Part shown: piece after piece, positions 8,701 through 64,000 of the stretch
Layout: every line of letters starts with the position of its first letter
How positions within the stretch are numbered: the stretch's first letter is position 1
Assembly (NCBI GenBank): GCA_008632985.1
Contig: QPGO01000121.1
Coordinates: 186,001 to 250,000, forward strand
Reading direction: 5' to 3'
Origin: Psammoneis japonica
Taxonomy: Eukaryota
DNA: 64,000 nt
Position numbers and translations under genes: made by a program
The notes under the pieces: model-generated
The model's input: only the letters and a program-made list of their open reading frames with translations
The model's database searches: none
What the model was told of the DNA's origin: nothing

Positions 8701-9850
8701 GAGATGGTCACTGCAAACTGGTTTGCACTTGTCTTGCTGCCATTGTCACCTCAGAACTTCATTCAACAAACAAAAAACCCGGCATTTCAACAGCCTTTGA
8801 GGCCATTTGCACAATTGCAGAGTGCAGCATGGAAAACGGGCAACCTCTTTTTGATGCCTGGGTTTGGTTGCAATGCAAGCTGTGCATTTTTTTCTTTTCA
8901 TGACATCCCAGAGATGGTCACTGCAAGCTGTTTTGCACTTGTCTTGCGCTGCCATTGTTGTCACCTCAGAACTTCATTCAACAAACAAAAACCCGGCATT
9001 TCAAAATTGCTTCATTGGCACTGCCAACTGATGCTGCATTCTTCAACCCTTCTCCTCCCCTTTCCCATGCAATTTTGTGTCTGATTGATTTTAAATGCAC
9101 AAAACAAGATGCTGCTGCTGCTCCAAGAGACTCAACCAAGTTTGAAGAAGGAGGAAATGTGCTCTTTTTAAGACAAAGCCACCACAAGCATGGCCCAAGC
9201 ATGTCATTCTCTTCTGTTCCACCCACTTCTCTGACTTGGGCACAGCCCATTTTTTCATTGTTCTTGATCAAGGTCCCAACAAAAAGAGTGTGCTCTGACC
9301 CTCCTCCTTGCTGGAATCTTTCTTGTTCTTGCCATCCACATGTGAGTCAAGAACTCTGGCCACAAGTTGGTCAGCACCGTTCTTGGTGCTGATGCCCAAC
9401 AGAGCTTGAAGCACGGTCATCAGCAAAGTCCATGGGACCACAAAAGAGGCACAGTGCAGCCACCTGTGGCTGCATTTTTTGCCAAGACTTGTGCCACGGC
9501 AATCTCAACATCGCCCCATGTGCAAGAAGAGAGTGCTGGCCAGTGCCATCAAGGTTCTGCTTTGGCCAGCCAAGTTGCCACTTCCCAAAATTGGTTTTTG
9601 CAGGAACAGCCCCGCTCGCAGATGCAGCACATGTCATCATCATGGCGACCGGCTTTTTCCTCGTCTTCTCCTGCCTGTTCATCATTGGAAGTGCACGCTT
9701 GGTGGGGGGGATGGCTGTTTTGGTGGTGCATTTCCATTTGCTCTTGCCACATCTTCCACCAAATCTTGGACTTGATCAAAATGCTGTCCCACCAAAATCC
9801 AGAGTCCTGTCCGCAATTTTGTGAATCTCCACACACTTTTGAGCATGCAT
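5790..9850. mobile_element. Decayed, unclassified repeat/transposon block, TpA- and CpG-depleted
   Basis: Abrupt switch to TG/CA-rich composition, almost no TA, few CG; only Cys/His/Gln-rich spurious ORFs; no confidently recognisable protein motif. Confidence 0.6.
8166..9003 (+). repeat. Tandem repeat, 4 x 209 bp
   Basis: Unit start gcctttgaggccatttgcacaattgcagagtgc at 8166, 8375, 8584, 8793; copies nearly identical. Confidence 0.95.
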
Positions 9851-10032
9851 GAACTTTCCGTTCAGTGTCAATGAACGCCTTCAGAAATGCATGGAGTCTC
9901 GCGACCGAGTTTCACGCCGAGCAACGCGTGCGATGAGAGGCCGGATTTTTGCTGCCGCCGGCGCGGGCGGCGTGAGACAAGATGTTGCGGGATGCGGAGG
10001 CTACAGTTGTGCACACTTCAGCACCTCACACC

Positions 10033-19067: not shown

Positions 19068-19444
19068 TCTCAGTATTCTCTTTCTCCGCAAGATAATTGA
19101 CTGTGTTGGTGCGGGGGCCGGTGCTAGCTTACTTTTTTCTTTTCAGTTCTTTTTTCGATTCTCAGTAACAGTAGCAATATATCAGCTCTATGTGTCACCG
19201 CAGCATTCTTTTGACTAAAGACAACGCCTTGCCGGGCTGGAGTGTCAGAGCACTTGCTTCTTGTTTTGGCTTTCCAGAGAAGAAAAAAGTGCGGTGCGGC
19301 GAGATGAGCGTCTCGGCGGGAGGGCGAGGCGTCATCATTTCCCATACAGTTTCTACATTGCTTCTACATACGACGGACTGTACAGGACAACCCGTGTGAG
19401 TTGTCTCAGCGTGCGGGACCATTTCTCGTTTTGCGCAGCGCAGA

Positions 19445-19895
19445 GTGCGAGGATCACCTCTCACCATCTCTGCTCTAGGTCCTGCTGGCAGCTAAAGCCA
19501 CAATGCCTCCTCCTCGCGTGTTAGGAACCTACGAAGTTCAGACAGCCACTCTGGCATCCACTTTAGAGAGAGCGACAAGCAGCCCAGTTACAAGAGAGGG
19601 AAAGAGCTGTTGCAAACCAAACAATTTTCAGCACAGCACACAATCCACCCCCAACCAAACATTTTGCGTTTGGGTGTCTTCGAGATGCGCGGATGGCACA
19701 CCTCCAGCATTGGACTGCACAGCTCATTTCTGATGCCCACACATCTGGCTTCACTCAATGACACCAGCACTGTGCCTGGTTGCCTGCAAGAAGCAACCCA
19801 CCAATGCGCTGCATGCAGGCGGATCATGTGGATGATGAAGCCGCTGTGCACTCGGGTCTTTCAGGTTCAAGGATCACCTCCACTCATTGCTTGCC
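19445..19895 (-). pseudogene. Duplicated fragment of the RBR last exon/3' flank, hypermutated
   Basis: 19565-19813 aligns with 31702-31953; 19851-19895 aligns with 31621-31666; same orientation. Confidence 0.85.
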
Positions 19896-19899
19896 AGCA

Positions 19900-21740
19900 G
19901 CTTGGTTGCTTGGTGTGGCCGAATCAAGAAGCAGCTGCCAGTGCACTGTAACTCAACAAGTGATCATTGGGCAATGAAGGAAAAAAGCTCAGGGGGGGCG
20001 CAATTTGGGGGAAGTCTCCACCAGCCAGCAGCTGGCTAAAGAACCTTGTGTGGAATTTGTGCTGGGAGAGTCTGTCAATCTGTGCATCAGGGGGGTTTGG
20101 TGAATGCAGGACAGAATTGACATCTTTTGTGTGCATGAAAATTGCACTGGCAAAACCCCCAAATGCACCACTGATGGGCAGACTTTTTTCAGCCAGCACG
20201 CTGATGCTGGCTGGAGATTCCCCCCAAATTCAGTTTAGTTGGCAGCATTTTGCTGTGTGCATTTCTGCAGTGCAGGGCAACCAGCCATGGCCAAGCATCT
20301 CTTTTCCATTGTCAAGCAATTTGATGCCTGACAGGCTTCCTTTTGTGTTCATGTTGTTTTCATTGGCCACAATTTGATCACAATGCCATCATTTTTTGCA
20401 TCTCACGTGTTTGTTTTTCATTGGATTTTCAACAGCACCACAGTCCACAATCATGGTGGGCATGATTGCTCGCATGGGTGCTCTGCACAAATGATGTCAA
20501 AACACACAAGCCACAACAAAAGGGCTGCTGCAACAATCTGGATTTTGTGTGTCACGTGAGAGCAGCACAAATGATGGCACTTAATTTTCAATGTTTGAGT
20601 CCAGATGTTCTTGATCCATGTCTCATCACAGGTGGTGTGTGGCATTCTTCTTGGCCACAGACACATCACATGCATGTTTGCACCAAATGTGGTCATGTTT
20701 GTTTGCAAAATTGCCTCTTTCTCTGTTGGCAATCATTGATGTGTGCATCAGCACCAAATGACTTCATGGCACAGAGCTTGCATGTGGAATTTTGTGGGCC
20801 CAACATCACACGGAGCCCCACCTGCTGGAGAACTGGAACACTTCAGCAAATGGCATCACACACCTCTCAAGCCATTGGCAAATTTTGAGCTGCAAAACTG
20901 CTTCAAAATGAGCTCTTTCAACTCTTGTGTGCACAAAACAGTTGAAATTGATTTGCCTTTTTAAGACAATGAGGGAGACAACTGCATCAGGAAATTTTGA
21001 TGCAAATGCTTGAGCACCATTGCATTGACACCATTGTCATGGCACACCACAAAAAACACATTTTGCTGCCAACCTGTCAGCATTGTTGTGACTTTCAGTC
21101 TGGAAAGTGACATCAAGTGTTTCCAACAATTAAGAGAAATTGCACACAGAGAAGTCATTTCCGCAAAATGAAGCCATCTTGTTTGGCACATTGTCAGGTC
21201 TCCACATCAATGGTGTGATGCATTTTTGAGTTTGTCCACAAGTGCATCTTCCCATTGTCACTCACAACAATGCACCAATTTTGGCAAGCAGCACCATGGG
21301 GAGAAATTGCTGGTGCCAATGACCTCTTGTTGTTGCACCAATGTGCTGGAGCCACATGCACTTGCTCTGTGTGTCAACATTTGTCAACCACACAGCACAA
21401 ACAGCACCATCACGAGATGCATGAAAGGTGTGCTAAAGGACAAGCAGGAGGTGCCGGTGCTGTTTCTGCCAGTGGTGAAGATGAGCAAAGACTCTTTGCT
21501 GAACTGCTTTTCTTGAGAATGAACACCTTGACAAAAATGAACTGACTCTGAGATGTGGATTGAGCATGCTCAATGGGGCAACAGTGCTCCCAAAGCATCC
21601 GCATCAACTCAAAAAGTGCCACAAACAATGGGGGTGAATCAGGTGGGTGCAGGATGCTGTTGAAGGAATGACCTCTGAGATTGAGCTCCTTGAAAAACTG
21701 AATCAAGAGAACACACCAGCTGATCTGCCAGAAGCTTGTT
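19900..21740. mobile_element. Decayed, unclassified repeat block, TpA- and CpG-depleted
   Basis: Same composition signature as the other decayed blocks; no confident protein motif. Confidence 0.55.
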
Positions 21741-21742
21741 CA

Positions 21743-21884
21743 GGGGCGTGCCAATGTCCACAGGGGACCCAGTTCCAGACAAGAAGGACACTCCACAGCC
21801 TGATCGTTCAATTTCAGATTTTCCTTTTATGTCTGAACCTGCCTGAATGCGTTCCTCTGTTGCTCTGTCAAAGTGGAAGACCTT
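21743..21884 (-). pseudogene. Diverged duplicate of the 3' coding part of the neighbouring FG-GAP repeat gene
   Basis: ccacaggggacccagttccagacaag…gcctgatcgttcaat…tggaagacctt aligns with ~22133-22269. Confidence 0.85.
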
Positions 21885-22068
21885 TCTTTGAAAGCTTAAG
21901 TTTTTTAATGAGTGGGAAAAGAAGCGAGTTTAAATTGTAATGTGTGGTCCGTCTTGGTTGATTTTTTAGTCATAAATTTTAGGGCTTCTGTTTAGTATTG
22001 TCACAATTTCATGTGGTGCGTAGTCTGACTAAACGTTAACAACGAATGTGCCTTGGTCGTAAATGACA

Positions 22069-23919
22069 TCAATTTTCTTTGAGTTCATACACTCCAACGC
22101 GTCCAGCTCTAAAGCCACCTTTCTTGTTTAAAGGGGCACCAATGGCCACAGCGGACCCAGTTCCAGACAAGGACACTCCGAAGCCTGATCGTTCAATGTC
22201 AGTTTTTCCCTTTATGTCTGAGCCTACCTGAATCCAGTCCTCCGTTGCTTCATCGAAATGGAAGACCTTAGTGTATCCAGCTGAAGTGTCACTCCCTCCA
22301 CCAGATGATTGAGATGCCCCAGACGCGAGCACTGTTCCGTCATGACTCAATGAGACTGACCAGCCGAAATTGTCACCGCCTACATCACCAAATAGTGTCT
22401 GACCAAGGGGCTTCCATCTTTTTCGCGCGGCATCATAAGAGAAGACCGAAGCAGTATTCTCACGCTGTGCTCCCACGGCCAAAATTGATCCACTGCCATC
22501 TAGGGAAATCGACCAACCAAATAGATTACCCTTGCTGTTTCCCATGATAGCTTTCCCCATACGAACCCACTGGGCAGACTCAGAGTGGTATTGATACACA
22601 AAAACCATACCCTCCTCTGAACCATTGGTCCCACCGTCATGGTGCCCGAAAGCAACGATATCACCCGAGCTGCTAAGTGAAACTGGGATACCAAAGCTGA
22701 ATCTTTTGGTTTGGCCAGTAAGTGACTGTCCAACTTGTTCCCAGAGGTTTTTGTCTTGATTGAGTTTGTACACGGTCACGAATGGCATGTAACCCCGACC
22801 ATTCTCATTACGTCTGCGGGCGCCCAACGCAAGCATATTGCCCGATTCGTTCAAGGAGACTGAAAGTACCAAAAGGTTGCCATCTAAGAAACCTGGCCCC
22901 TTAATGCCGTTCCCCAGCTGAACCCACATTGAGGTAGACTCATCGTATTGGTACACCACAGCCTGAGTAGCCTTCTTTAGAACAGTGACTGCCAAAATGT
23001 CTCCCGGACCATTGACCGACACACCGTTTCCAACTCTGTCGGTTAAACTTTGCCCCATTTGTGACCACGTGTTTGGCGTTGAAGAGGTATCCAAACGATA
23101 GGCCTTTACTAAAGTTTCACCTCCTGCTACGGCGGCCAAAGTTTTACCGTTTTTCGACAATGAAACTGCCTCTCCAAGCCAGTTCTGAAAGCCTCCTAGA
23201 ATGTCTTGGCCTAGTTGCTTCCATTGACCATTCTTCGGAAAGGACGAGGGGTACGGAGTTTGCGTTACTGTTGCTGTCGGCATCGGAGTCGGTTTAGGAG
23301 TGGCGGTTGTTGGAGTTTGTGTTGGAGGAGTAGGCGTTGGTCTAGACGTGGGAGAAGGCAACGGGGTCTGCTTGTCGGGACCACACACCGGTACCTCCAA
23401 CAACGTGTCAACAAATACGGAACTGCTTAGAATAAGGCGAACGGCTTTTGTGTACTGTGTGATACTCATCGCGAAGGATCCGTCATCAAGAAGTGTGTTA
23501 CCAGCTTGGAGTGCCTTTCTGATTTTCTTGATAGAACCTTTTGAAACACCTTGTTCAACATGCGTAGTCAAATCTTGAGTAACCTTTCGGGCATCTTTGA
23601 TGAGGGAGACGGAAACTGACTCAGCAAGAGAACCCGCCTCGGGCTTTTCTGAAAAATCAATGGATCTCTTTATCAACTTGAACGATTTAAGAAGATTTCC
23701 TTTTTTGGCTTTCTTGATAGCCTTTGAAACTAGTTTACCCTTCTCGCGAATCTCATTTGTAGCACCACGCCTGTTGATTTGAACCACTTGGTGTGACAGC
23801 CTCTTGATGTATTTGCACAGGGCATCATTAGTGTCAGGTTCCACAAGAGAGTTCGCGCCGATTGCTACGAACGAGGAGAAGAGGGAGAGCAAGAAACAGA
23901 TGGAGAGAATTGTCTTCAT
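22069..23919 (-). CDS. Secreted/surface protein: signal peptide, helical domain, Pro/Thr stalk, FG-GAP-like beta-propeller
   Basis: MKTILSICFLLSLFSSFVAIGA; PSPTSRPTPTPPTQTPT linker; about seven repeats of WxQxGxxIxG…FGxSVSLSxxGxxLAxGA. Confidence 0.85.
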   Translation of the reverse strand: MKTILSICFLLSLFSSFVAIGANSLVEPDTNDALCKYIKRLSHQVVQINRRGATNEIREKGKLVSKAIKKAKKGNLLKSFKLIKRSIDFSEKPEAGSLAESVSVSLIKDARKVTQDLTTHVEQGVSKGSIKKIRKALQAGNTLLDDGSFAMSITQYTKAVRLILSSSVFVDTLLEVPVCGPDKQTPLPSPTSRPTPTPPTQTPTTATPKPTPMPTATVTQTPYPSSFPKNGQWKQLGQDILGGFQNWLGEAVSLSKNGKTLAAVAGGETLVKAYRLDTSSTPNTWSQMGQSLTDRVGNGVSVNGPGDILAVTVLKKATQAVVYQYDESTSMWVQLGNGIKGPGFLDGNLLVLSVSLNESGNMLALGARRRNENGRGYMPFVTVYKLNQDKNLWEQVGQSLTGQTKRFSFGIPVSLSSSGDIVAFGHHDGGTNGSEEGMVFVYQYHSESAQWVRMGKAIMGNSKGNLFGWSISLDGSGSILAVGAQRENTASVFSYDAARKRWKPLGQTLFGDVGGDNFGWSVSLSHDGTVLASGASQSSGGGSDTSAGYTKVFHFDEATEDWIQVGSDIKGKTDIERSGFGVSLSGTGSAVAIGAPLNKKGGFRAGRVGVYELKEN

Positions 23920-24504
23920 TGAAACTCGCGTTGGTGCTTTTTCGAACGATCGACGATATGCCGTTTTCTTTTTGGAACTGCTCACGAGTCACGAGGTGCT
24001 GCGCCTTGTTGTTATTTTAGGACGGGGGCGTTGCTTTCCGATTGTTGAAGTACCATGACATCTTTTGCAAGAATTGTTTTGAGTTGTTGCATGGACGCAT
24101 GGATGCTGTCTGCGGTGCATGGTGTTGAAATTTGTCAAGTTCAGTCCAGCGTCGAGGTCGTGTTTCATTCGTGCATTGGGTCGCTCCGGAAAACATAAAG
24201 ACATAAATTTATGATCATAAATTATATTTAGCACTGAATATTAATTAATGATCAAAATTTATGTTTTTATGTTTTCCGGAGCGGCCCATTGGTGACTGGC
24301 CTCGTAAAGACCGACAAGGGGAGATGACCTCATTACCCGTTGATGACGCACCGGGAAATCACCCCCCGCATCTGCCACATTGAACGCGTTCAAGTTGGCG
24401 TTTGGAAGCGAGCTGCTGTTGCTCATTCTTCCGAAGAGCTTTAGCAGCAAGCCGAATAGACAGTCTAAAAGCGCTCCCACCTCTCCCTCCCTCTGGCCAT
24501 GCCG

Positions 24505-24596
24505 TTCCAGCTTGGGAATGGAAAGGGACCAACTGCGCAGGTAAAGTCCTTTCCAGCTTGGGAATGGAAAGGGACCAACTGCGCCAGTGAAGTCCT
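24505..24596 (+). repeat. Tandem duplication, 2 x 46 bp
   Basis: ttccagcttgggaatggaaagggaccaactgcgc at 24505 and 24551; tails gtaaagtcct vs gtgaagtcct. Confidence 0.9.
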
Positions 24597-25299
24597 CCCA
24601 TCCCCACCAATTGCCTGTCTCTAGAATCAGATCACCGCAAGAAGTCGTACGAGCAAAGCGACACCAGTCGCTGGCATGCAAGTCGCAGAGTGCGCTGTGA
24701 CTCCTCTTGGCATGCATGCATCACAAGCTTGACAACTTTTGGTGTTTGTCCGCCCTTTTTCAACTGAGTGTCGTTTTGTCTGATTTCTCAAGAGTTTTTT
24801 GTTTGTTGGTTTGTGCAGAGAATGCACACCATGATGCACACATGGGATCAACAAAAACACCCTCCATCATCTTTTTTTGCTGACACAGAGGCAATCAAGC
24901 CTGACCACACAATGTTGACTTTGCCACACACGTGTTTGAAAGACACGCACAAATGTGTTCTTCTTGTTGCAGGAAGAATTGCTGCTGATGTCGCTTTCTG
25001 TCATAAAAGACTTTGGAACAGTGATGCCTTGGGACAGCAATGCTGCAAACACACAGCCATGAAAATCATGGCGATTTGGGCAGAACTGACCAACAGTCAG
25101 ATGCGCCCACATCACACCATGAGTGAAACCCCGCCAAATTAAACAAAAATGGTGCACAGAGTGTCAGTGTTGGAATCAATGCCATGACCCATTGTAACAC
25201 CACCTTTCCACCACTGTCACTCTGCCACCTCAGCTTGCTTGTCATTGCCAGCACTGCTGCAATTTTGCAAGCAAATGCTGTCCAATTCACTCTGTGCAA

Positions 25300-26210
25300 A
25301 AGTCACAATGGAAATGTCAGAAAGGGGGGAGATTGGCTCTGCTGTTGTGCAGCAAAGATCTTTTCTGAATGAGGCCACAAATTGGTTTGCAGCCTTGGCT
25401 CCAGTGCTGAAGATGTGCTGTGGACCTGACCCACTTTAGCCCATGTGTGAAAGTGCTTGCACCGACTTGACGACTTGTGATCGCTGCTTGACTTTTGATT
25501 GTGTTCCAAATGAATTGCCCATCAATGTGGAGCCATGGCATGCTTGCTGCTGGTTGTGTGACCAAGGAAATGGGAAGGAGGAGCAACAAGCAAGTGTCGT
25601 GGCATCCTGGTGTCCTGCTCCCCACCTTGTTTGGTCTTGTGGGTGCTGGGTGCTTTGTTCCCGAGTGAGGAGGACAAGCAAACAAGAACTCCAAAAGAGT
25701 GTCATCAGAGAAACATTCCAAATGATGTCAGCAGGGGCAGAGAGGCACTGCATTGAATGGCTTGCCAATCTGCCTCACCAGATGAAATGTCTGCAAAAAG
25801 AACGAGAATGTGAAGACTGCACTCATCATGTTGGGAGCTGCTGTTCTTTTGGACAATCGCCCATGATCCATGATGTGGGTGGCCCCCTTTTCTTTTTTTT
25901 GCCCTCCCACCCACCCTTGATGTGGTGGAAACTTTTCACTCATGGCAACCTCCCAGAGCAAGGAAAGATTGGCTCTGCTGCTGCACAGCAAAGATCCTTT
26001 GTGAATGAGGCCACAAACTCCCTGGTTTGCAGCCTCAGCTCCTGCGCTGAAGACATGCTGCAGGCCCTGACTTGACTTTTGATTGCTGATTTGCTTTTGA
26101 CTCTGTTCCAAATAAATTGCCTGTCAATGTGGAGTCATGACATGTTTGCAGCTGGTTGTGGGACCGAGGAGACAAGGAGGAGTTGCAAGAAGCAAGTGTT
26201 CTGGCACCCA
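25300..26210 (+). repeat. Diverged direct duplication (~25300-25610 vs ~25940-26210)
   Basis: gattggctctgctg…cagcaaagatc…tgaatgaggccacaaa…tttgcagcct at ~25331 and ~25967; many mismatches are reciprocal TG/CA. Confidence 0.85.
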
Positions 26211-26214
26211 CTCT

Positions 26215-29200
26215 GTGTTCATTTTCTCAACAGTCATTTTCATTTGTTGCATCTGGCTTCTGTTTTTGGGTGAAGCAATTTCTTGTCAGCAATGCACTGG
26301 ATGTCAAATGTTGCATCTCTTTCAAAGACCAGTTGTCCTGGTGTGGCTTGCACCATGGCACATGACATGTCTGCTGAATGCACTGCAAAGGCCCCTGCTT
26401 GCAGCATTCCAGCAAAAGGATCCTCAGCATCCAGAGGAGCATTTTGTAAATCAAGTGTGCACATGATGTTTCCCAGCACTTGATGCACATGCTCAACTGT
26501 GGCATTTTTTGTGAATTTGGCGTGGTTGCGGGTTTGCATTTTGTGCCGTGGTTCTCTTTAACCATCTTTTCAAACTGGTGTCTGATGAACTCACTTCCAC
26601 GATCATTGGGTGATTGATGACAGCCAAGGGAAACCACTTGGCCATGTCTGTTTGAGCAGACCTGCAATGGTGTTGTGGATTTCTCATTCAAAATTTCTGC
26701 TGCTTCAACCATCCAGTTGCTGGATCAATCATTGTCAAATGTTTCAGGATTGATTTTTTTGTTTCTGCCCTTGCAAGGCACTTTGCATGGTCCAACAAGA
26801 TCCACAACATGGTCTGTGCCATGGCACTGATTCCATGCACTTGGGAGGCAAATGCCCACATTTCTTGTTTTGTTTCTTCTTGAATTTCTGCATGTCTCAC
26901 ACTTGGACACACATTTTCTCATGTCTTCCCATGAGGCAGGCCACCACAGGTGTTGTGAGATTGTCTCTTCAGCTCCATTTTTTGTGCCAGGGTGAAGAAG
27001 GCACACACGATGCCCATCTGTTGCTGTTTTTTGTAATGTCTTTGGAACAATGATTTCATCTTTGTGACATGTGAGCAACTGGTCTTGCTTGCCTCCACAA
27101 AAAGTCTTTGCATGACATCATGTCCTGTCTGACAATTTGGAGAGAATGTCTTCATCCCATTTTGTTCAGCATCAAGAATTTTGTGAGTCAATGGACAGAC
27201 ATTGTTTCAGGATTCATGTGTTGTCTTCTCAGCCAGTTCTTCAGTGCTGAGATTTTCCACAGGTCCCATTTTCTTCATGTCAAGTCAGCTGATTGCATCT
27301 GCAACAACATCAGCCTTGCCCTTGAGGTGAGCTGTTTTTGGGCTGCACTCTTCTGTCATTGGATGCCAATGCATGACTCTCTCTGTTGTGAAGTTCTCAT
27401 GAGCAAGATTTTTGTGATCGTGTGTGTCTTTAACCAACTGTTGGCCAAACCATTTTGTTTGTTGTTGTGGCTGTGGAAGGCAACAGGTCAGTTGTTCTGT
27501 GTGACAACTGCCCCCAATTGAGAATTGATTGCATTGGCATGTGTCTGAAAGGGTTCATTGAAATGTTGGTGTGATGATGATGTGCCTTTTGACACAATTT
27601 GCTTCATGTTTTTGAAGGCATGCTTGCTGATGAAATGCTGCAATTCCTTTCAAGTTGTGGGGGTTGCAATTGCTTGAACCACCACCTCCACTTTCTCAGG
27701 CATCAGTTGAAATGCCATTTTGGGTGATGTGGAAGCCCAAGCAATCTGCTTCAGGCTTGGCAAAAATGACTTTTTGGCATTGATCTTCAACCCAGCTTGT
27801 TCAAGCCATGTGAATGCCATCTCAAGCTTTCTGAGGTGATCATCAAAGTCACCTTTTGTCAGGCACAGCATGTTGTCATCACAAGTTCTGATGAACTCCA
27901 AAACTGCCACATGCTTGCTCGTGGGTTCTTGAAAAACATCCAGGACTCTGCAAATTCCCGCGGGGAGTCTGCAGCATCAATGCTTGCCCCGTGGCATGAT
28001 GATCATGTGCAAGCAATGTGCATGTGGTGTCAACTTGACATGACAGCATCCCGTGTTCGAATCAAGTGAGGTTGCATGCATGGAACCTTCCAGGTTCTGT
28101 GGCATGTCCTGAGCATTGAGCAAAGGGAACAGAGTGCATGTTGACCTCTCACTCAGCTCATGGAAATTGGACAGAAACCAAACTCTGCCATTTTTCTTTG
28201 GTTGAACAAACTTTGGAGCTGCCCATTCAGAGTGGTTTGCTTTTCTGAAGACCTTTTGCTTGCATGATCTTTCAACTTCCTTTTGAGCAGTCACTTCCAA
28301 GGCTCAGAAAATGGTTTTGCATGATGGTTTGGCACCCATCTTCAACACAAGATCAACCAGTTTCCTGGTCCAATTGCCTGGGAGAACCATCAAAAAGAGG
28401 TTCAAATCTCACATTGTCAAGGCCAGCAGCATGACAGCTGGAATCAAGATTTTGTTGATCCTGTCATTGAAAATGTTCATGGCATGTGATTCCTCAATGT
28501 GATTGGCTGTTGGCACAAACACTTTGGCATTGAAGAGTGCATCAACATTTCTCACAAGCAGTGAGGCCGCATCTTCCAATTTGATTTCTTCATTCTTAAA
28601 ATCAATGTGATTCCAAGACTGCTCATTGGGTCACATCCCATGATCATGTCACAGCAACTTGAAGAAGTGGTGGTGTCATTCATGTGCGCTGTCTTTTCAA
28701 TCAACTTGTTTTCATTGAAATTGGGTGAAAAGAACTGTGCTGCACATCGCATGTCAGTTGTGAAGAGCCCACCCTTGGTTTCCCAAGTTTGGGTGGCAGG
28801 TTTCTTCATTCTCAATTTCTGCTTAACTTTTGCACAGAATTGCAGAGAAGTGTCCATGTGGTGATGACCACTGGACCAGCAAGCATTGCTTTGACCCTTT
28901 TTTTGGGTTTCCCAATGTCCAGCAATGTGCAAGACTCCTTGACAGAAGCTGGTCATTCTCTGAATCACTGCGCAAGTCAATTTTTCAAATTGGCATTTTC
29001 CTTGCTGAGGGCATCTGAGTCATGTTCCTCATCCTTGCATTCTTCATCATTTGTAAGGAACTTGCCTTTAGAGTTTCTTTGACTCCCTGAGCAATCATGG
29101 TGTTCAGCTCTTCCTTGGGAGTGGCATTTTTAGCATCATGATGAGACCACATGTGATTGCCATTTGAACATTGCTTTTGGGTTCCATTCAAAGTTCCCCC

Positions 29201-29800
29201 AATGTTCTTTTGCAAAAGACCTTTTGGAGAATGCAATTGAGACAACAGATTGTCCAGATGCAACCAACATTGAAACCTTGTGTGTCAACATTGTTGGTTG
29301 ATTGTGCGTTTGCATTTTTTGACATCCGATTGGCTCTGTGTGACTGATCTGTCCTTTGCACACATCCATGGTTGTGGTGTCATTAACACACATGCAACAA
29401 TGCACAATTGCAGCTGAATGTGCACATTTGTTCTTGCTTGACAATGCATGTTGCATGGTGGATGCAGACACATGTGTCATTCTTTTTTGTCGTCATTGGC
29501 CATGCAGTGGTTGGTGTGTTTCTTAGAAGCTTTGATGGCACATGGGCATGTGGGCATGGGACAAATCTTGTCTTTCAAGTTCCGCACAGTGTGTTCCAGG
29601 GTCACATGGTTCTCATGAACATTTTGCACACAAATGTGCACAACACAATTTGTTTAAATTGTCAAACGGTCATCAAAGCTCAAACAGTCATTGTGTGTTT
29701 GGCCCAATTGCAACAAGAATGCTGACAATGATTGCACACATGACAATCTGTGTGGTGCAACTCATTTGGAGGGTCACCAAATGGTCGTTGGAGCTCAAAC
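26215..29800 (-). mobile_element. Ty3/Gypsy LTR-retrotransposon remnant (gag-PR-RT-RH-IN)
   Basis: RT: SEWAAPKFVQPKKNGRVWFLSNFHEL and EFIRTCDDNMLCLTKGDFDDHLRKL…AGLKINAKKS; IN: HPG…ETISQHLWWP…CETC, LTMIDPATGW, TPGQLVFERD; RT before IN = Gypsy order. Confidence 0.9.
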
Positions 29801-31915
29801 AGTCTTTGGATGTTTGGTGCCAGAACACTGATTGTGTTCACACAAAGTGTGTGCACTGCAATTTGTTCTGAGGGTCAAGTGGTTGTCAGACATCTAATGC
29901 TCACATGCTTGTGCTGTTTGTTGCACATTTGTCCCATGGTCAATGCAATTGTGGTCATGTGGCCAGTGTTCTTAAGATGCAGGTGTCTTCTGGCCCAATG
30001 AATGTCACTTGGAGTTCCACCCAAGAGGGCTGGAGTGCATCCAGCATTCTCCAGAAGAGATGTGTCCTCCCCAGCAGCAGAAGCATTGGCAGGGGTCAGC
30101 ATTCTCCAATGGAGCAGTGCCCCTCTCACTGTGAGAAAGGGAGGTGCTTCAGCCACAGCCACCTGGAAAAGAGCAATGGCATGGCACAGCTGGAGCTGCT
30201 GGGCTCCACAAAGAGATGGATGGGCAGAACAACCAGCCACATGGGTCATCAGTTGTTCTCCAGATGAAGTGCCCCAGTGGAAGGTGTTTTTACAGCACTC
30301 ATGGCATTTTGAAGAGCAGCCCTGGTGCAATGCAGTGCAAGTCGTGAGCTGTGATGGATGCATCAGAGGGTGCTTCAAAAGACAGTGTGATGCTTTGGAA
30401 CATGACAGCACACCCTTGTTGACTCAGTGTGAATGTCAAGTTGCATCATCACATCTGCAGAGAGACAAACAATTGTGCTCATTTGAGCTGCACCAAAGAA
30501 CTTGCATGTTGACAAGAGTCAACATTCTTTGAGTTGGGCAGTGTGAACATCAGGTGTGAAGTGAGCAGCAAAGTGTGGCTCAAATTACAAAACTGTGTCA
30601 CAGGTGAGGGAAACAAAAAGCAGCAGGCTGTGAGCACAGAATTGAACAACTCTGATGACTTGCACATTGTGCGCAGCCTTCCACCACACAATCAATTGTT
30701 TTTGGGGGGGGGATCAATTGTTTTGGGGGGGGGGGGGGGGCAGTTGCATTCCTGCCATGTTGCACCACTTTGTGCTCTGCCCAACCTCTTCCCACTCTTC
30801 AATGTCACCCAACTCATCACAATTTTTAACTTCATTTGTGCCAGTCTCTGCAGCCCAGCAGCACCACAATTTTCTGCAAGTGTGGGAGACTCCTCTGGAG
30901 CCAAACATCCAGAAATGTCACTGGCAGCAATGTGCTCATTTCATGTTTGAGGCACATGAAGCTGGTTGTCAAAGCAACCCAAACTTGTCCTGGATCATTT
31001 TCTTTGCAAGTTTGCAGCTCCAAACATCAGTGCAAGTTCACACAAAAATCTCTTTGAATGATCCTGCAGCTCTGCCCTCCAAGCTGTCAATTTTTGCTCT
31101 CTCACCCACAGGGCGCTCCTTTTTTGAATCTCTGATGTCATTTTTCTGTTTCACCAATGTGTTTTCTACACACTTTTCTGGCCAGGCAAGCTTTGAAAAA
31201 AATCTGGCAGCACTTTGCATGCTCCCTCATGCTTTGTTCTTCCTGACCAACACAATTAGAAACTGCACTGCAGCAAAATAATCAGAAAGAAACGCTGGCA
31301 TGCTGACAAGCACAGTGGCAGAACAGCCTGTTGGATGCTTCCAGCTGCAGGCAATGTTGCTTTCAGATCCCCTGGGGGATGGCAAACCTTGAGCATCTGT
31401 TGCCTGCAGCTGGACGATGGTTTTTGATGTGCTGCAAAGAAAATTCCTTCCAATGCTGTCGGAGACAATTCTCGCGATGTTGTTGCATCTGAGAAAGGAA
31501 ATCAGAGATGTCAGAAATTAACGACAAAAGTTTTACAGATTTCTTTTTCAAGATTTCCCTTCTCACGAAATTTCCGCATGCGCACTCTCTAGAGAGGGGT
31601 ACTCCCTACTCTACCTACTCCTCGGATCTTTCAGGTGCAAGGATCACCTCCGCTCATCGCGTGGCCTATGGTCAGTTACTCTCTCAGACATTCATTCATT
31701 CGAGAGAGGGACAAGTAGCCCGTTTACAAGAGAGTGAGAGAGCTATCGTAAACAAAATAGTTTTCAAAGCAGTACCTAAACTACACCCCAAACACATAAT
31801 TTGCAAGTCTTCGAGGAATACATTTATAGTATGTTGTATAACCCCAGCGTTGAACTGTACAACTCATTTCTGCTGTCCAAAGATCTGGCTTCATTCAATA
31901 ACACCAGCACTATGC

Positions 31916-34900
31916 CTAGTTGCCTGCAAGAAGCGTCCTACCAACGCGCTGCAGATCCTGGATAGGGGATGATACACGAGAAAAGTGAGGACGTGAAAAG
32001 AAGAAGCGAAGAGCATATGCCTATCGACAGTGACCACGTACTGTTAAACCAGCGCCTCCAAAGCTATATAACGTTCTTGTTTTCGGCGCCATTTCTTCGG
32101 GAGAAGTAGACCATTCATCGACATGAATCTTTACGTTACCTTCCTCCACCGGAGCATGGCCGCTTTGGTCGAGAGAGCTCTCGCTGGAGGGGGACGCAAC
32201 GTCTCGGCGGGCGGCGTTCACGGTTACGCCAATCATTGATTCATTGTCAGAGGACACAGATTCCTTGGCGGCAGCGTTAAGGGGAGCGCCATTCTGAAAC
32301 TCTGTCGTCGTCTGCGGTGACGCTGCTTCTTTCATGGAATTGCTATGCAACAAGAAATCCTTCATCTTTGGAATGACCACCTTGTTGTAGAGATCGATAA
32401 CGTTTCCATGTTTCTTCTTACCGGGTTGCTCCGGTGCGTCCATGGGAAGAATCCGAACTTGCCTGACTAATTTCTGGCATTCGCGTTCTCCAATTTCTTC
32501 CTTTCGGATAGTTGTGTATGCCCCAATGATCTTGACAAAGGTCAGTTTGGCCTTTAGCCTCGTAACCCTGGTGACTCCGTAGATAGTGCATAGGATCAAT
32601 TGGTCAACGTGGTGGTCGTAAAGGAGCTCGATATTGTGCCTGAGAAGGTGACGGAACGCCACCCAAATTTGAGATGCAACAGGAAGGGGTACTTCTAATT
32701 TTTCGCAAAGGGCCGAAATGCGAGAATGGGACATTCTAAGGATCTTGCGAAGGATGTAATCCACGAAACGATACTCAGGGTGTTCCGCAGTCTCCTTGTC
32801 CATTGTTCTACATGAGACGAGGTTTGCTTTGCCGGCCTCCACGAGTTCTGCCCGTAACGTGGGCAACAAGATTTCCGTTGGCCAAAGGGGCTGCTGACCT
32901 GCCACCTTTAAATTGTGCTCTTGGAGTTCCTCGATCGTGTCCATAATACTGTCACCCGCGGCATTGAGATGGCATTCGTGAGACCATAAAATTGAGTCCG
33001 TGATATTAACCTCGTATTGCAGCAGATGTTGTTGAAGAAGGTGGGGCAACACACCGATCGGTGACACCCGTTCGTTTGAACTAGGCGGGTCGGACCTGAG
33101 AATGCGCAAGAACGTCTCGCTCACTTTTAAATAAGCGTACGGCGTGCATTCCATCAACTGGAGGGTAGACTTCAGATTATGCATCTGGTAGTCTTCGCCG
33201 AGCAATTGCTTGCTGCAGAAACCGACTGCCTTGAGGACACAAGCGTAGCTGCACGCCAAAAGAGCCCTGTGGAACGACTCGTTTTGTATTAACCGGGGAT
33301 GCGCCGCCGATTTTAAGCGGGCGGTCTCCTGAAATAAGAGAATATCAAGTACGTGAAAATACAACGATATAATGGCCTTGCATATCTTCCTGTCTGGGTA
33401 CATTCCATCGTCGCCACCAGTGGCAAGTTCCTTAAAGATCACTTCGCCACTGCCTTGGGAGATTGCAATACTCGAACCGGCGCCGTTGTAGCCTTGTAGT
33501 TTGTCAACGACGCGATACAGAACAGCGAAAATAACCGACCGCCACCCTCCAGAAAAGGATTCGGGTACGTCCCTCAAGATATTCTTCATTTTCCAGCTTG
33601 ACAACTCGTCGTCACTGGCATCGAGGTACATTAATAGTCGAGGGCTTGGCTTGATTTTCGTAACCATAAGGATTGAGAGAGTCCATTCGTTGAGCTCCAA
33701 TGCGTCTGTCCTCAAATTCTTCCGCCAGTCTGACGACCTCAACGAAGAGACAAGTTCCGATATGTCCTGCGATTCCGAAGAGACAGTGATAACCGAAGGC
33801 GAAGACGCTCTTCCAGACACACTAGGCCTGTATCCGTTAGTGACAGCTAAGGCATTATTGTCGGGGGCGGCATTCGGCGATTTGGGCGAAGAAGCAATAG
33901 TACACAAGCGTTGAATCATCAACGCCGGATTGGACGGCGAGATGGCAAATTCGTCAACATACGGAACCCACTTGATCACACTCTTCGCCACATTTTGTTC
34001 AGTGCCGCTAGTGCCCGTATTTGCAACTGATGTACTCAGTGCGCCAATCAATTCCATGTTTGCCTTCACAAACATTTCGTCGATCTTTGCCACCGGAAAC
34101 TGTTCGTTTGACAGAGCAAGTCTCAATCGATCGTGAAAGCTCGTCGCGGGCTCCTTTGTTTCTTGTGAGGCAGGTGTAGAAGCATCTTGCGTCGCAATCG
34201 CCATAATTTCCCTTTCAAGTTCGTCCTTTGAGAATAATGGGCCATCCAGGACACCCTGCGCGACCAGCCAATTGTACAACGAATTTGAGACAGAAACGAC
34301 CGAAGCTAGAACATCCACTCGTCCCACTGAATGGCTCGGCGACCCTTGCGAACTTCTGGAAGATGATGTGTCACTGCTCATCATTGTCAAGGCGGCAATC
34401 GCCTCGTCTTCAATGGAAAGGCGACTACGCTTCGCGGCGCGCTTCTCGGAGTCGGGGCTGACTTCCTTGGCTGCCGGTATCTTGGGCGGCAAGCCGTGTT
34501 CTCCTCTGTTCGGCTCTTTTCCTTCAGAGCCACCCGACGTACTTACCAGCGGCGTGTTGACAGTGTTCGTTGGAGTAGCTACTCCTCTCTTGTATTCGAC
34601 TTGACCCGGAGAAAGAACCAGCAGCAGCCCCATGCTAGCTGCGCTTGTTAGGATACGCTTTCTCCGCTTTGCCTTTTCCACGGAGGCCTCGTCCTGGTCT
34701 GCCTCAGAAGTGAGTTCGTCAAGCAAAAGCAAACGGTGCTGTTGCAGAGTAAGAACGCAAGACAGCTTCCATGCGTTTTCCTTGAGGACTTGGCGATTGG
34801 GAGATACATCCTGTCTGTCGTGTCGCTTCCTCTTGGCCTTCCTTACCATACCACAATACGCTTTCCATATAAAGTCAAAGTCGGACAGAGACTCGACTAC

Positions 34901-35668
34901 GCATTTTGCGGACTTTTCAATTTGCTTGAGGGACGTTTCAAGGATCATTTTCCAAGCTTCTTCGTTTGGTCCCCTACAAATCACAAACTGGATAAAAGTT
35001 GTTCCACTGACTCCATGTCCCTGCGACTTGGGCACCACCAGTTTGAGACACTCAAATGCAACCTGCGCGACGGTGGGGAGTGGTTGAGTGTCGTGGTACC
35101 TCTTGCATTCCTCTAAAAACTCCGCCATGGTGTTGGCAATCGATACACAATTCACCAAACGCGCCACCTCAAAATGAGCGCGAATTTTCTCCGCATTGGG
35201 TGTGTCTTCCGTAGACTCAGTACTGTCTTTACGTAGAGACTCGCGCCCTTTTTCAGCGTCCATGTCGCCATCAGCAATGTCCATGGCTGCGACGCCGCTG
35301 TCGCCTTTGCTCGCTTCGCCATTCGAAGGCACAGTAGCAGATGCTTCGCCTGAGTTATTCTGAGAGGTAGACTGCTCCTTGGACGCCGCTTCGTCGCTTT
35401 TTGCTTCTGCCGATGCTCCTGATGAAGTCTCGTTCTGTTCAGGTCTCGTTGATTCTACGTGGGAATTAGTACAGTCTGTACTGAACGCTTCGACGATACA
35501 CGATAAGAGAACTGCGGCCGACACAGCCATAGTCCGCGTTCTCTGATGTACTTTCATCCATTGATGCGCTCGTATGAGAGTCTCTGATGTAAACGGTAAG
35601 CCCATCTTGCTGGCGGCCGCCAGCAAGAGCGGATCTTGCGCCGGCGGCGCCGTAGTCGTCGCCACCAT
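31916..35668 (-). CDS. RBR: Retinoblastoma-related pocket protein; intron 31958-32041, last exon 31916-31957
   Basis: Rb A box FHRALLACS…PYAYLKVSETFLR…HLLQYEVNITDSILW; B box RKILRMSHSRISALCEKL…LLYDHHVDQLILCTIYG; GTACGT donor and CCAG acceptor give C-terminus YSFGGAGLT|DLQRVGRTLLAGN*. Confidence 0.9.
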
Positions 35669-35997
35669 GGTCTGCAAGCGGCGGCGGATGGAGGATCGAT
35701 TTGAGGATTGCTTTTTGCGGATGGCGCAGGCTGGGAAAGATTGTACGCAACCGCTCTTATCAAATCTACGAACGTAGAAAAAGTACGGGCATTCACGAGC
35801 AAAAAAGAAGCGCGGGACTTCTTCGTACGTACGTCGTCCGCTGAGCACTGCGATGACGCGTTTTTTGGCGCCAAAGATTTGCCGCCTGCCGCCCATTTAG
35901 ACTCCCTGTACCATATTCCACATTCCAATTCTGTTACGGCTTCAGGGTGCTGTTGCAGTTGTGTTGCTTGTTGTTACGGGCATCATCAGCATCGACC

Positions 35998-54838: not shown

Positions 54839-55023
54839 TGACAGAACACCAAAGGGGAATGAGGACAGCGGTGTGACAGACTCCCCAAGCAATGTGACTG
54901 CAACAACATGAGCACTGGCAGAAAGAAGTGAGAGGCAGATCTCAGAGAGATCTGCTCGTCCATCTGAATGGTCTGGTCATCATCCATGCACAGTCTGTCC
55001 ATCACAGGACAGACAGGCTGACA
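54839..55023 (-). repeat. 3' LTR of Copia B (185 bp)
   Basis: tgacagaa…ggctgaca; adjacent to PPT; aligns to 59015-59175 with a 24-bp indel. Confidence 0.92.
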
Positions 55024-61109: not shown

Positions 61110-64000
61110 AGCCATCACGCGCCATGCACGAGTGATGTCATCGTGTGGAATCACGCTACCATCGTGGGCCAGACGACGGGCTAGTGTGCTTCACACGGAT
61201 GCTCTCTCAGCATCCTTCTGGAATTGCCTGAGACCTGGAGCCACGCCCTCCTGTGGTCGTGCTTCCCAGGTGTGTGTTGACAACACTGCGTTGCCACGCA
61301 CAAGAGGCTCATGCACGGTCTCACCGTGTTGTCCAGTGGCGAGGCACACTGCACACTCCCCCATGATCAGGGCCGTTGAGTGACAGAATGTCTCACTGGT
61401 GATGGGGTGCAATCTGCCGTAGATCACACGTGTCTGTCAGCGCTCCGTTCTGGACACGCAACGTGCCGTTGTCACACACACGGACAACTCTGGCGGGTCC
61501 TGCATGGCTGTCAGAACCGCACTTGGAGGATTGTTCCTGTTTGATGAGTGCCAATTGCCCCATGGCATGTTGATGCTCCTTGCGTTTCTGATTTTCACGC
61601 TTGTTGTTTAAGTGGACAAGCTTCTGCTTTCTGGTTTCTGTGTGCTTCCACTTGGCACGATGAGCAATGGACAAAACCGCATCGCGTCCGAAGACCAATT
61701 GCGCTGGACTTGCACGCGTGGTCGCATGTGCCGCAGCTCCAACAGCGAAGGCTGCTGCGGAGAGGATGCCACTCCATGGGTCATCTTCATCCAGTTCCAT
61801 GTCCTGCACTGAAAAGGAACGCACCATGTCACCAAGTGTCTGGCGCACACGTTCCACCATGGCATTTGCCTGTGGACTCCGTTTGCTTGTGGGTTTCTTC
61901 AAAATCCCACAGTCATTTTTAATCATCGGCTGAATTCTGCCATAAATTCTGTCCCACGGTCATAAACTGCCTGGGTTGGCCACGGATGTCTGCATGGCCA
62001 CGTTTGTTCCACGACGTTTGCTGCGACGTCTGCGCGTTTCGCAGACACTTCTTTAATCTTGAACCACCCGGTTGCTGGGTCAATCATTGTGACTGCCCAC
62101 AATTGCAAGGTGTCCTTTCCGCGTCTTTGAATTTTACATGGCCCTGTCACATCTGTGCATGGAGTCTCCCATGGAATTATCTCTGCGACCTTTTCTGGCA
62201 ACTTCCCATGATGCTGCGTTCGGCGTTTTGTCTTCTGGCATCGATCGCACTTGGCGCACGTAGAATGCACCGTAGACCTCACACTGGGCCAACAGAAGTG
62301 CTGGGCAATGGATGTTTCCGCACGTGTCTCACCTGGATGACACAGTGTCTCGTGGCACCATTCAGTCAGCGGAACCTGTGGTGCTGCGATTTTGTCCTTG
62401 TGACAGATTAACTGTCGTGATGACCCTCCCCCATGATGCGCACGAATGGAGCAGTCAGACGAGTCCTTGGCTCTTGAGAGCAGGCGCTTGTCCTTTTGTT
62501 GTGCTTTTTGAATGCGCTTGAAGGTGCTGAATGAGCCTGCCACCGCGGTCCAGTTTGTCTCAGCCGTTGAATGGCTTCGCAGACGTTTGCAGCATCGACT
62601 GTCAAGCAGAGCACTGCTGGCGCCACCATCTGGCAGTGCCTCAATGGTTTGAGTCTTGCCCTTGCCATGTTTGGCATTCACAGCTGCAAACAAGATTGGA
62701 GTGAGATGAGTCTTTTTAACTCGTTTGCGGGATTGGCCTGCAACACGTGTACGATGGTAATCCAGTTGTTCATTTGTACATTCATCTGATGTGCCAAAAC
62801 TGCCTGTGTCGTGTCGGCCCCCTTCTCAGGCGTCCGAATCTTCGGAATCACTTGAGTTGAGGTCGCGGAAGTGATTGAGCTCCTCCTCGCGGGCCTTGCG
62901 CTTTTTCTGAGCGTTGGCAAAGAACTCCTTGACCTTCGATCCGACAAGAGCATCAATGTCTTCCTCATTCCGAGGTTTTGCATCAGGCTTGCCGCCTCTG
63001 TCATTGGAATGTCCAGTCTTGACACGTTTCACGTGGTGCTTGAGCTGACGGCAATCCTCCGTATGATGTCCACAGTTGATCCTGCGCAGCATGCACGACT
63101 TCTGGGTGTTCCGTTGGGTCGTGATCAACGACTCAGGATTGTCCGTTCTACGTCCCCGCTTACATGGAACCTTGGCATGTTGGTCCTGGTTGCCTTCGGC
63201 AAGCTCGACCTGCTCGATGCGCTCGCAGAACTGCACAAATTCGGCGACAGTGTGCGCCAACGGGTCAAAATTCTGTAGCGTCATGAACTTCTGCCATGCG
63301 TTCGGCACACCGCACTCGAACATGTCGCACAGTTCGTCATTGGGCAATGGTGCCGGTGTTTCTCCATCCTCCGTCACGGGTGGAAACTGAGAGATGTGGC
63401 CGTTAATTTCAACAGCCCTCGCGACGTAGTCACGAGCAGAAACCTCTGCGGGCTTGCGCATGAAGCGCCGCAGATGACGCTTCTGCAACAGTGCCGCCCT
63501 GTGTGGGAAGATACTTTCCTTTAGCTTCGCGATGCATGCTGCGCACGTGGCGTTGGTTTGGCATGCCTGCTTGTCAGCGGCATTGTCAAATGACGTCAGA
63601 GCATCGCCCTGTGGCAGGTCATGCACAAGGGCAAATTTTGCTGGCCCGGTCGTGATGTTTTGTCCTTCATGCGCGCGATCCACGTTGTGCAGAAAGATTG
63701 GGAGTGTCTCGCATGTAGCCGCAGAAAGGTGCGGGATGCCCATCTCGTGCGTTGGACTGTCCGGATCAGCGGGGTTGTCACGCAGCTTGAACGTCTGGCA
63801 CTCGCCCTGCTGCAGCTCTTTCTTCTCTGGCCGTGCGAACGGAATCGGCGGCTCAACCCGCTTCTTCATGGTCATTTTAAGACTGTTCGGTCCTGCCAAC
63901 ATTTCGTAGTTTCGTTTCTGTAGATTTCGTCACCTCGCACAACATGCGGGAGCAATGTCACTGTGCCCTGCGCATGCACCAGGCGCTGAAAAAGAAGATG
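61110..64000 (-). mobile_element. Ty3/Gypsy element C, internally deleted (gag, PR stub fused to IN; RT/RH missing), runs off window
   Basis: gag 62826-63902 (QKRHLRRFMRKP, FCERIE); PR ALPDGGASS; IN HETLCHPG…CDRCQK, VTMIDPATGWF, YDRGTEF, PQANAMVER; PPT-like ATGGGGGAG (minus) at ~61356-61364 before probable 3' LTR. Confidence 0.92.

Follow-up and report, generated by a model that had tools for sequence, protein, structure and literature searches.

Repeat-induced point mutation (RIP), as described in the abstract of PMC2621366, changes C:G to T:A, mostly at CpA and creating TpA, and mutates both copies of a duplicate; the title and abstract of PMC3105345 report it also on single-copy genes embedded in repeat compartments. 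Here, we studied a window of 64,000 bp from the stramenopile alga Psammoneis japonica (positions 186,001 to 250,000 of contig QPGO01000121.1; 48-50% G+C, with eukaryotic, intron-poor genes), in which the 3' end of a gene of the retinoblastoma family (RBR) is present both at the gene itself and, 12 kb away, as a dead duplicate in a block of intergenic, transposon-filled DNA. The same host DNA in these two contexts gives a polarised readout of the almost complete erasure of TpA by A:T-to-G:C changes. As an explanation of the whole, the dead duplicate has quite probably been altered by a location-bound process that converts both TpA and CpG. To our knowledge, directed hypermutation as a genome defence is established only as fungal RIP, always on cytosine, and we know of no natural DNA adenine editor.

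The locus shares with RIP a permanent, dinucleotide-specific transition hypermutation in silent, repeat-rich DNA, in which transposons are disabled and single-copy DNA among the repeats is hit as well. In fungi, RIP further requires cytosine methyltransferases of the RID/DIM-2 type and a premeiotic stage. Apart from the organism, it differs from RIP in that the affected blocks lose TpA (observed/expected ratio [o/e] of 0.04, versus 0.59 outside) through changes of A:T to G:C, in that overall G+C is almost unaltered, and in that only the copy within the block was converted, the gene copy keeping 20 TA dinucleotides in 31699-31953. The original prediction had contrasted the locus with RIP. This contrast held for the direction of change, the loss of TpA and the restriction to one copy, but is weakened by the fact that RIP, too, has been reported on single-copy genes in repeat compartments (abstract of PMC3105345). 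The process that erases TA is not RIP, and the footprints of CpG decay, ADAR and APOBEC also fail to explain it.

The source gene was recognized by a large minus-strand open reading frame (ORF; 32024-35896) that exceeded the Pfam cut-offs for RB_B (91.4 bits versus 26.9; E = 6.5e-26) and RB_A (56 bits versus 25; E = 6.3e-15) and thus belongs to the retinoblastoma family. Eight RB homologues with both domains were 32-43% identical to it, and the one among them that bears a species name is from the diatom Licmophora paradoxa; by this comparison, the window belongs to a stramenopile alga, probably a diatom, which is not closely related to any source of the proteins searched. A protein-atlas comparison matched clusters of bacterial nitrite/sulfite reductases and was uninformative as to taxonomy. 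Logan contigs (31-mers) of three sequencing runs were placed on the window; of these runs, X1 is genomic, X2 is labelled 'DNA?', and X3 had no contig that matched. A search for runs that match the window listed none of RNA. One X2 contig (record 13; 3,845 nt) joined 32041-32500 straight to 31956-31760 and omitted 84 nt with GT (32041/32040) and AG (31959/31958) at their ends on the minus strand, which fits a phase-0 intron. This joint was absent from the 15 joints listed for X1 (15 of 38). X2 depth was present in only 10 of 30 bins and nil over both TA-free blocks from 24863 onward. Long, clean X2 pieces all lay on genes, including one contig (21953-24056) that spanned the gene 22072-23988 with short flanks, and the only others, short pieces of 34 and 58 nt that fitted in part (24472-24533), fell between this gene and the block to its right. 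From this gene-only coverage we infer that X2 consists of RNA data, and it was therefore read as a transcriptome. The last RBR exon, as predicted from the sequence, is real and spliced, since the X2 contig skips the intron. The gene copy, which had been described as untouched, showed a TA o/e of 0.58 over 31280-31960, equal to the normal level, in addition to the 20 TAs noted above. A conserved C-terminal motif that had been seen by eye in the last exon was dropped (shuffle p of 0.036-0.69 over the eight homologues).

Within the dead duplicate, 19743-19813 matched 31883-31953 without gaps at 63 of 71 positions. In the copy, all four gene TAs (31899, 31911, 31917, and 31939) had been replaced, the first three by TG and the last by CA; two of the three CGs were lost (31934 to CA and 31945 to TG, with 31947 kept), and the stop codon TAG (31918-31916, minus strand) had become CAG. 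Only two other mismatches were present (31894 and 31936), so that the initial description of this segment was accurate in each of these points. The exon changes in the copy (Val to Ile, Arg to Gly, Thr to Leu, and stop to Gln) were TA or CG conversions, some of them spanning codon borders, except for an extra base in the Thr codon (31936).

BLAST comparison of the window with itself revealed a longer match between 19563-19813 and 31699-31953 (74.3% over 261 columns, E = 8e-40), as well as a second one between 19851-19893 and 31621-31663 (88.4% over 43 columns, E = 8.7e-8). Along the longer match, the 20 gene TAs corresponded to CA in 11 cases and to TG in 5, one was kept at the block edge (copy position 19589), and 3 were gapped or otherwise changed. 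The 8 gene CGs were represented by 3 CA, 2 TG, 2 kept CG, and 1 AG. Gene TG was kept at 11 of 13 sites and gene CA at 17 of 22, and the copy never had TA opposite a gene TG or CA (0 cases). From 19590 on, all 17 gap-free gene TAs were changed, 16 of them to CA or TG, whereas of the other dinucleotides 134 had stayed as in the gene and 70 had not (Fisher p = 4.6e-8); for CG by itself (4 of 6 changed), the effect was not significant (p = 0.19). The claim that the flank continues the pattern was borne out, with one correction: outside the 71 bp the copy is old, and most mismatches are unrelated to TA or CG conversion. Among the 51 mismatches in 244 aligned bases of the BLAST match, 21 were TA or CG conversions and 30 were unrelated, which argues for an old copy.

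With a transition-tolerant alignment, collinearity reached 19423-19838 versus 31560-31972 (score 331.5; maximum of 200 shuffles, 60), and the second unit extended to 19910 versus 31680 (score 72; shuffle maximum, 53.5). Since the order of the two matches at the dead locus is the reverse of that at the gene, where the second precedes the main match, the dead locus holds ∼1.2 tandem-like RBR 3' units. Simple models for the origin of this permuted order (target-site duplication, a circular intermediate, or a tandem split by insertions) were considered, and none fitted. The left ∼165 bp of unit 1 (19423-19589) were 68% identical to the gene, and TA o/e was 0.64 for 19400-19590; TA and CG occur at normal density in this part, so that the duplicate extends across the block edge. 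When a retrocopy origin was examined, the spacer 19814-19850 did not significantly resemble the upstream exon or intron (purine/pyrimidine alignment, p = 0.70), and a ∼20-bp extension of the collinearity into the intron was too short for certainty. X1 depth over the dead copy was ∼62-64, the single-copy level. The segments 19423-19838 and 19851-19910 stem from an old duplication of the RBR 3' end at the DNA level and are not transcribed.

The block with the dead duplicate is one of four intergenic blocks (∼5782-10001, 19590-21828, 24649-31500, and 52545-60165, here blocks 1 to 4) that were nearly TA-free and CG-poor, with TG and CA almost doubled. Over 19,851 bp of block DNA, o/e was 0.04 for TA, 0.17 for CG, 1.83 for TG, and 1.90 for CA, versus 0.59, 0.95, 1.14, and 1.14, respectively, over 40,314 bp outside. 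The other twelve dinucleotides shifted by at most 0.13, base composition and G+C were almost constant, and the longest TA-free run measured 2,310 bp. Summed X1 contig depth was 7028 at 20353-20803 and 290-1365 at 26216-28921, compared to ∼62 for single-copy DNA, which indicates that these segments belong to very abundant repeat families. Single-copy stretches of the blocks (20804-21705, 24863-26215, and 29373-31176; X1 depth of 62-80) were equally TA-free. X1 contigs agreed with blocks 2 and 3 to within 0-2 differing letters (records 2-8), making a base-calling artefact unlikely. Among 110 ORFs in the blocks and the adjoining 60.2-64.0 kb, Pfam gave only two matches, both in block 3, and left 108 unmatched; a relaxed domain search of seven ORFs yielded only Integrase_H2C2, three others (E of 0.04-0.29) being far below the cut-offs.

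That the change runs from TA to TG or CA was shown by three lines of evidence: outgroup proteins, a second gene-end duplicate, and a third sequence of the 19.5-kb locus. For the first, the integrase-bearing ORF 61926-62825 was used as a query and retrieved 413 Ty3/gypsy polyproteins, and 89 of these (900-1200 amino acids, from the best 120 of the 413) were compared to the window by tblastn. Columns counted as conserved for Tyr if no fewer than 10 homologues were represented and 70% or more of them had this residue. Polyprotein homology covering reverse transcriptase, RNase H, and integrase was found at two loci, 26243-28920 in block 3 and 61345-63044 (the 61-kb element), identifying both as Ty3/gypsy; Integrase_H2C2 was above its Pfam cut-off at both, and RVT_1 in block 3 was below (20.5 bits versus 29.6). 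Not one conserved Tyr was kept, either in the block 3 remnant (0 of 19; 8 His, 8 Cys, 3 other) or in the 61-kb element (0 of 10; 4 His, 4 Cys, 2 other). His or Cys occupied 24 of these 29 columns, and all 24 codons were CAY or TGY. Conserved Arg was kept at 7 of 27 columns in the block 3 remnant, with replacements including 6 His, 3 Trp, and 3 Cys. The 61-kb element retained Gly at 20 of 20, Pro at 15 of 15, Trp at 10 of 10, and Arg at 13 of 14 conserved columns. In this element, a single reversion of CA or TG to TA restored the consensus at 25 of 57 differing columns, CG reversion at 2, and an opposite-direction control at 2; the corresponding numbers for block 3 were 50 of 246, 32, and 5. 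Tyr content was 3.8 ± 0.4% in the 120 listed homologues (the best 120 of 413), versus 0-0.67% in the four transposable element (TE) ORFs of the window. Around the 61-kb element (61200-63990), TA o/e was 0.19 and CG o/e 0.86. As a side observation, 8 of the 27 residual TAs in this region were situated in GTAG.

At its right edge, block 2 carries another dead duplicate, derived from 22123-22269, where the coding region of the minus-strand gene 22072-23988 has its 3' end. Three gene TAs were well aligned with this duplicate, of which 22129 had become CA and 22225 TG, with 22213 kept, and 3 of 5 gene CGs were CA or TG. This supports a replication of the bias seen in the RBR copy. Host-derived DNA is affected too, as the original prediction had proposed, and this includes single-copy DNA, with an X1 depth of ∼64 over the RBR copy and the same bias in this second gene-end duplicate. 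Both edges of block 2 carry 3'-end fragments of minus-strand genes situated to their right.

The third sequence came from alternative X1 contigs, which covered 19547-19631 at a depth of 38.8 (of 67.1) and 19650-20126 at 46.5, compared to ∼62 for single-copy DNA. These look like the other haplotype, although they may be a paralogue. Three states were found at 19580-19581, namely TA in the gene, CA in the window, and TG in the alternative contig, which point to two independent one-step conversions of an ancestral TA. At two positions with TG in the window (19611 and 19805), the alternative contig keeps the CG of the gene, and the four TA sites of the 71 bp were in the same state in both versions. 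The predicted direction therefore stands on the stop codon, on this contig, and on the replacement of retroelement Tyr by His or Cys relative to outgroup proteins. Over 19547-19847, the second version differed by 23 substitutions and 3 indels in ∼300 bp, versus 0-1 differences in contigs nearby (20237-24206 and 30741-32500); divergence between haplotypes (or from a hidden paralogue) is thus very high precisely at the block edge.

Table 1. Positions of the dead duplicates, their surroundings and the RBR source gene in the window
Feature	Positions	Strand	Evidence	Remarks
Full collinear dead duplicate, unit 1	19423..19838			TA-free from 19590 on; left ∼165 bp with normal TA and CG density
71-bp gap-free match	19743..19813		versus 31883-31953	33 bp of RBR 3'UTR and 38 bp of last coding exon
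Second partial unit	19851..19910			Copy of 31621-31680, after unit 1; permuted, tandem-like order
Source unit	31560..31972			Downstream flank, 3'UTR, last exon, possibly ∼15-20 bp of intron; TA density normal
RBR 3'UTR	31760..31915	-	X2 record 13	Up to the end of the X2 contig
RBR last coding exon	31916..31957	-		13 codons and TAG, phase 0
84-nt GT..AG intron	31958..32041	-		Missing from X2 contig record 13; joint ambiguous by 1 nt
RBR main exon/ORF	32042..35896	-	Pfam	RB_A and RB_B pocket domains
Block 2	19590..21828			TA-free, CG-poor; very high-copy repeat and single-copy parts
Second dead duplicate	21735..21884		BLAST, 82%	Copy of 22123-22269 (3' coding end, minus-strand gene 22072-23988)
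Block 3	24649..31500			TA-free, CG-poor; right edge (31280-31519) 240-480 bp past RBR transcript end
Decayed Ty3/gypsy remnant	26243..28920	-	tblastn	In block 3
Ty3/gypsy element	61345..63044	-	tblastn	TA loss, CpG intact

Comparison of repeats indicated when and how the conversion acts. In two repeat pairs within blocks, 14 of the 20 mismatched bases and 10 of the 43, respectively, belonged to TG/CA doublets, whereas two pairs outside blocks had 1 doublet among 43 mismatched bases and none among 24. Conversion thus acts after the copies separate, and doublets are enriched in the in-block pairs. It is strand-symmetric, with a His:Cys ratio of 12:12 in the retroelements and 11 CA versus 5 TG in the RBR copy (binomial p = 0.21), which argues against editing of sense RNA. 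The loss of TA is faster than that of CG and separable from it, because the 61-kb element combines a TA o/e of 0.19 with a CG o/e of 0.86, and 9170-10002 has no TA at a CG o/e of 0.53. In 61200-63990, CpG decay seems either to lag behind the erasure of TA or to be unconnected with it. Of the 58 TAs still left in the blocks, 54 were in TTA or TAA contexts, versus 646 of 1,662 outside, which suggests a flanking-base preference of the process; TAA sites can convert all the same (31749, 31777, and 31899).

With respect to CG, the blocks resemble products of methyl-CpG deamination: CG has given way to TG and CA in silent repeats (o/e 0.17), Arg CGN codons of block 3 now encode His, Cys, or Trp, and 5 of the 8 CGs in the RBR copy are CA or TG. 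The blocks go beyond such decay in that the loss of TA is the more complete (o/e 0.04) and also occurs without loss of CG, in the 61-kb element and in 9170-10002. With the footprints of ADAR and APOBEC they have in common clustered transitions, a preference for neighbouring bases, and inactivated retroelements. In contrast to these enzymes, which act on RNA or single-stranded cDNA, are strand-asymmetric, and affect retro-copies only, the changes described here were strand-symmetric and extended to non-retro host DNA. An ADAR-type process would leave A-to-G changes on the transcribed strand only and in retro-copies only; instead, His and Cys were balanced at 12:12, and the gene-end duplicates were affected. 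TpA-to-TpG/CpA hypermutation, in diatoms or elsewhere, was not found described in open-access papers or bioRxiv preprints.

Among other explanations, the one that survives best, although we consider it unlikely, is a hypermutation triggered by homology or repeats according to the logic of RIP, with leakage into adjacent DNA. The repeats would then be the true targets, the dead copy would merely abut them, and chromatin position would be irrelevant. In favour of it, the blocks contain very high-copy repeats (X1 depth of 7028 at 20353-20803 and 500-1365 at 26216-28921), the dead copy ends ∼100-500 bp from a very high-copy repeat, and RIP has been reported on genes within repeat compartments (title and abstract of PMC3105345). 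However, the single-copy stretches of the blocks listed above are equally TA-free at kilobase scale, and the gene copy is untouched despite lying within 240-480 bp of block 3. Spreading from repeats and a chromatin domain would be inseparable by sequence alone.

A far smaller probability attaches to ADAR-like A-to-I editing of retroelement transcripts that was fixed by reverse transcription, in which case the TA-free state would have been inherited at insertion. ADARs prefer a 5' U, so that UA would read UG, and block 3 does hold a retroelement. Editing of the sense strand, however, gives Tyr-to-Cys changes only, which is at odds with the equal numbers of His and Cys. Moreover, the RBR and the second duplicate are not retrocopies, given that upstream exons show no significant similarity and collinearity continues past the transcript end. 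The two copies or haplotypes of the 19.5-kb locus differ by independent conversions, and the TG/CA doublets within the blocks speak against this scenario as well.

Three further alternatives are hardly credible. The reverse polarity, in which the gene sequence is derived and gained TA and CG from a TG/CA-rich ancestor, has in its favour that an outgroup for the RBR 3' locus is missing and that either direction needs both kinds of transition, but the gene copy holds a spliced coding exon with its stop codon, the three states at 19580-19581 are gene TA, window CA, and alternative TG, and 0 of 29 Tyr were kept in the window elements relative to outgroup proteins, while the control in the opposite direction accounts for no more than 2 of 57 and 5 of 246 columns. 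Barely worth considering, too, is a native composition maintained by selection, with elements that were always poor in TA and CG and a dead copy that is part of such an element rather than host-derived. Avoidance of CpG and UpA is common in viral and retroelement RNAs, and the block ORFs remain open; yet homologues have 3.8 ± 0.4% Tyr (120 examined) versus 0-0.67% in the four TE ORFs, conserved Tyr of catalytic domains are now His or Cys, and the RBR copy has the depth of single-copy DNA and runs collinear with a host exon that is spliced. Finally, a sequencing or assembly artefact, with modified bases of silent DNA (e.g., 5-methylcytosine at CG and a modified base at TA) miscalled as TG or CA, can practically be set aside: long-read base-callers do miscall methylated motifs as transitions and the sequencing platform of the runs is unrecorded, but X1 contigs cover the blocks at even depth (∼60-62) with 0-2 differences, as fits accurate reads, and the CG-derived changes of Arg codons together with the 30 unrelated mismatches show real age.

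Our preferred reading, a location-bound process that converts TpA and CpG, would operate as follows. In intergenic, transposon-filled blocks, a directional, dinucleotide-specific process would turn TpA into TpG or CpA by A:T-to-G:C transitions on either strand, and CpG in the same blocks would be converted to TpG or CpA at a slower pace. The process would work in place on any block DNA, be it retroelement, single-copy filler, or host gene fragment. Its target would be set by location, i.e., silent repeat-rich chromatin or nearness to repeats, and not by duplicated sequence, as suggested by the homologous gene sequence 12 kb away, which is untouched. Targeting by position or chromatin, as put forward originally, would go beyond what a sequence can prove. 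In the diatom Phaeodactylum, transposons are marked by H3K9me2/3 and H3K27me3, as stated in a passage of PMC4504042. The CG part is probably ordinary deamination of 5-methylcytosine, and the TA part may involve a heterochromatin-coupled enzyme or base modification. Two chemistries are conceivable for the latter: adenine at TpA might be deaminated to hypoxanthine, or thymine at TpA might be oxidised to 5-hydroxymethyl- or 5-formyluracil, which would mispair with G. In favour of thymine oxidation, both thymine and 5-methylcytosine are 5-methylpyrimidines situated in palindromic pyrimidine-purine steps. Pfam searches of the window ORFs revealed no candidate enzyme for TA conversion encoded in the window.

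A possible chemical precedent is thymine hydroxylation in dinoflagellates and kinetoplastids (5-hydroxymethyluracil, base J pathway), as a thymine oxidised at C5 can pair with G and would thereby lead to T-to-C changes. We know of no mutational footprint of thymine hydroxylation reported for either group. According to older work, 5-hydroxymethyluracil has a preference for TpA. In dinoflagellates, 5-hydroxymethyluracil replaces 12-68% of thymidine, as stated in a passage of PMC6313786 in which such a preference is not found. Among the titles and abstract openings listed by a literature search, none dealt with 5-hydroxymethyluracil in diatoms. More specifically, and with somewhat less than an even chance of being right, the process might be a natural DNA-level A:T-to-G:C editor with specificity for TpA (a double-stranded DNA adenine deaminase or a thymine oxidase) that is coupled to silent chromatin. 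It would constitute a RIP-like second defence outside fungi that differs in its chemistry, faster than and independent of methyl-CpG decay, to which TTA and TAA are relatively refractory and which was still active after the haplotypes of the 19.5-kb locus diverged.

Several observations weigh against a location-bound conversion of the RBR copy or against the data on which we based it. The edge within the duplicate is not sharp: gene TA 31716 was converted at 19580, to the left of the kept TA at 19589, and in the left part, where the alignment is weak, CA or TG has likewise replaced 5 of 8 gene TAs. At two sites with CA in the gene (19559-60 and 19768-9), the alternative contig shows CA-to-TG doublets; these need two steps, e.g., CA to TA to TG, for which a one-step model is insufficient. 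This contig may also be a paralogue rather than an allele. X1 may be the assembly's own data and hence not independent, and X2 is recorded as 'DNA?', its nature as RNA having been deduced here. The 13-codon exon, which is very short, gave shuffle p values of 0.036-0.69 against the eight RB homologues, and an outgroup for the RBR 3' end is missing, the best RB homologue being just 42-43% identical. What the data show directly are the duplicate, the splice, the direction and strand symmetry of the changes, the separate course of TA and CG loss, and the effect on single-copy DNA; the link to chromatin and the chemistry are the deduced part of the explanation.

Nevertheless, the dead RBR tail holds up as a natural experiment with a polarity, and the original reading of it was strengthened. 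Should the process prove enzymatic, it would represent a new kind of genome defence in a major group of marine primary producers, and an editor of adenine or thymine in DNA might exist in nature. The relative age of insertions can be gauged from a simple two-speed marker, the combination of TA o/e and CG o/e. Since TAA and TAG stops and all Tyr codons are removed, long frames stay open in dead elements, which homology searches then miss. The erasure of TA, by eliminating TAA and TAG, also results in many overlapping open frames in dead DNA. Overlapping ORFs of 150-280 codons were present on both strands, many of them in dead DNA (e.g., 53789-56098), and constitute a trap for gene prediction.

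Block 1 showed two further peculiarities. Its right end, 9170-10002, consists of 833 bp without TA, but with 30 CGs (CG o/e 0.53), and reaches the start of a tubulin-tyrosine-ligase-like ORF (9976-11451); here, the TA-free domain extends beyond the CG-poor domain and into the likely promoter. At 8165-9004, a tandem array of four copies of 209 bp (96% matches) was almost without TG/CA doublets between its units, which suggests that the array probably expanded after TA erasure.

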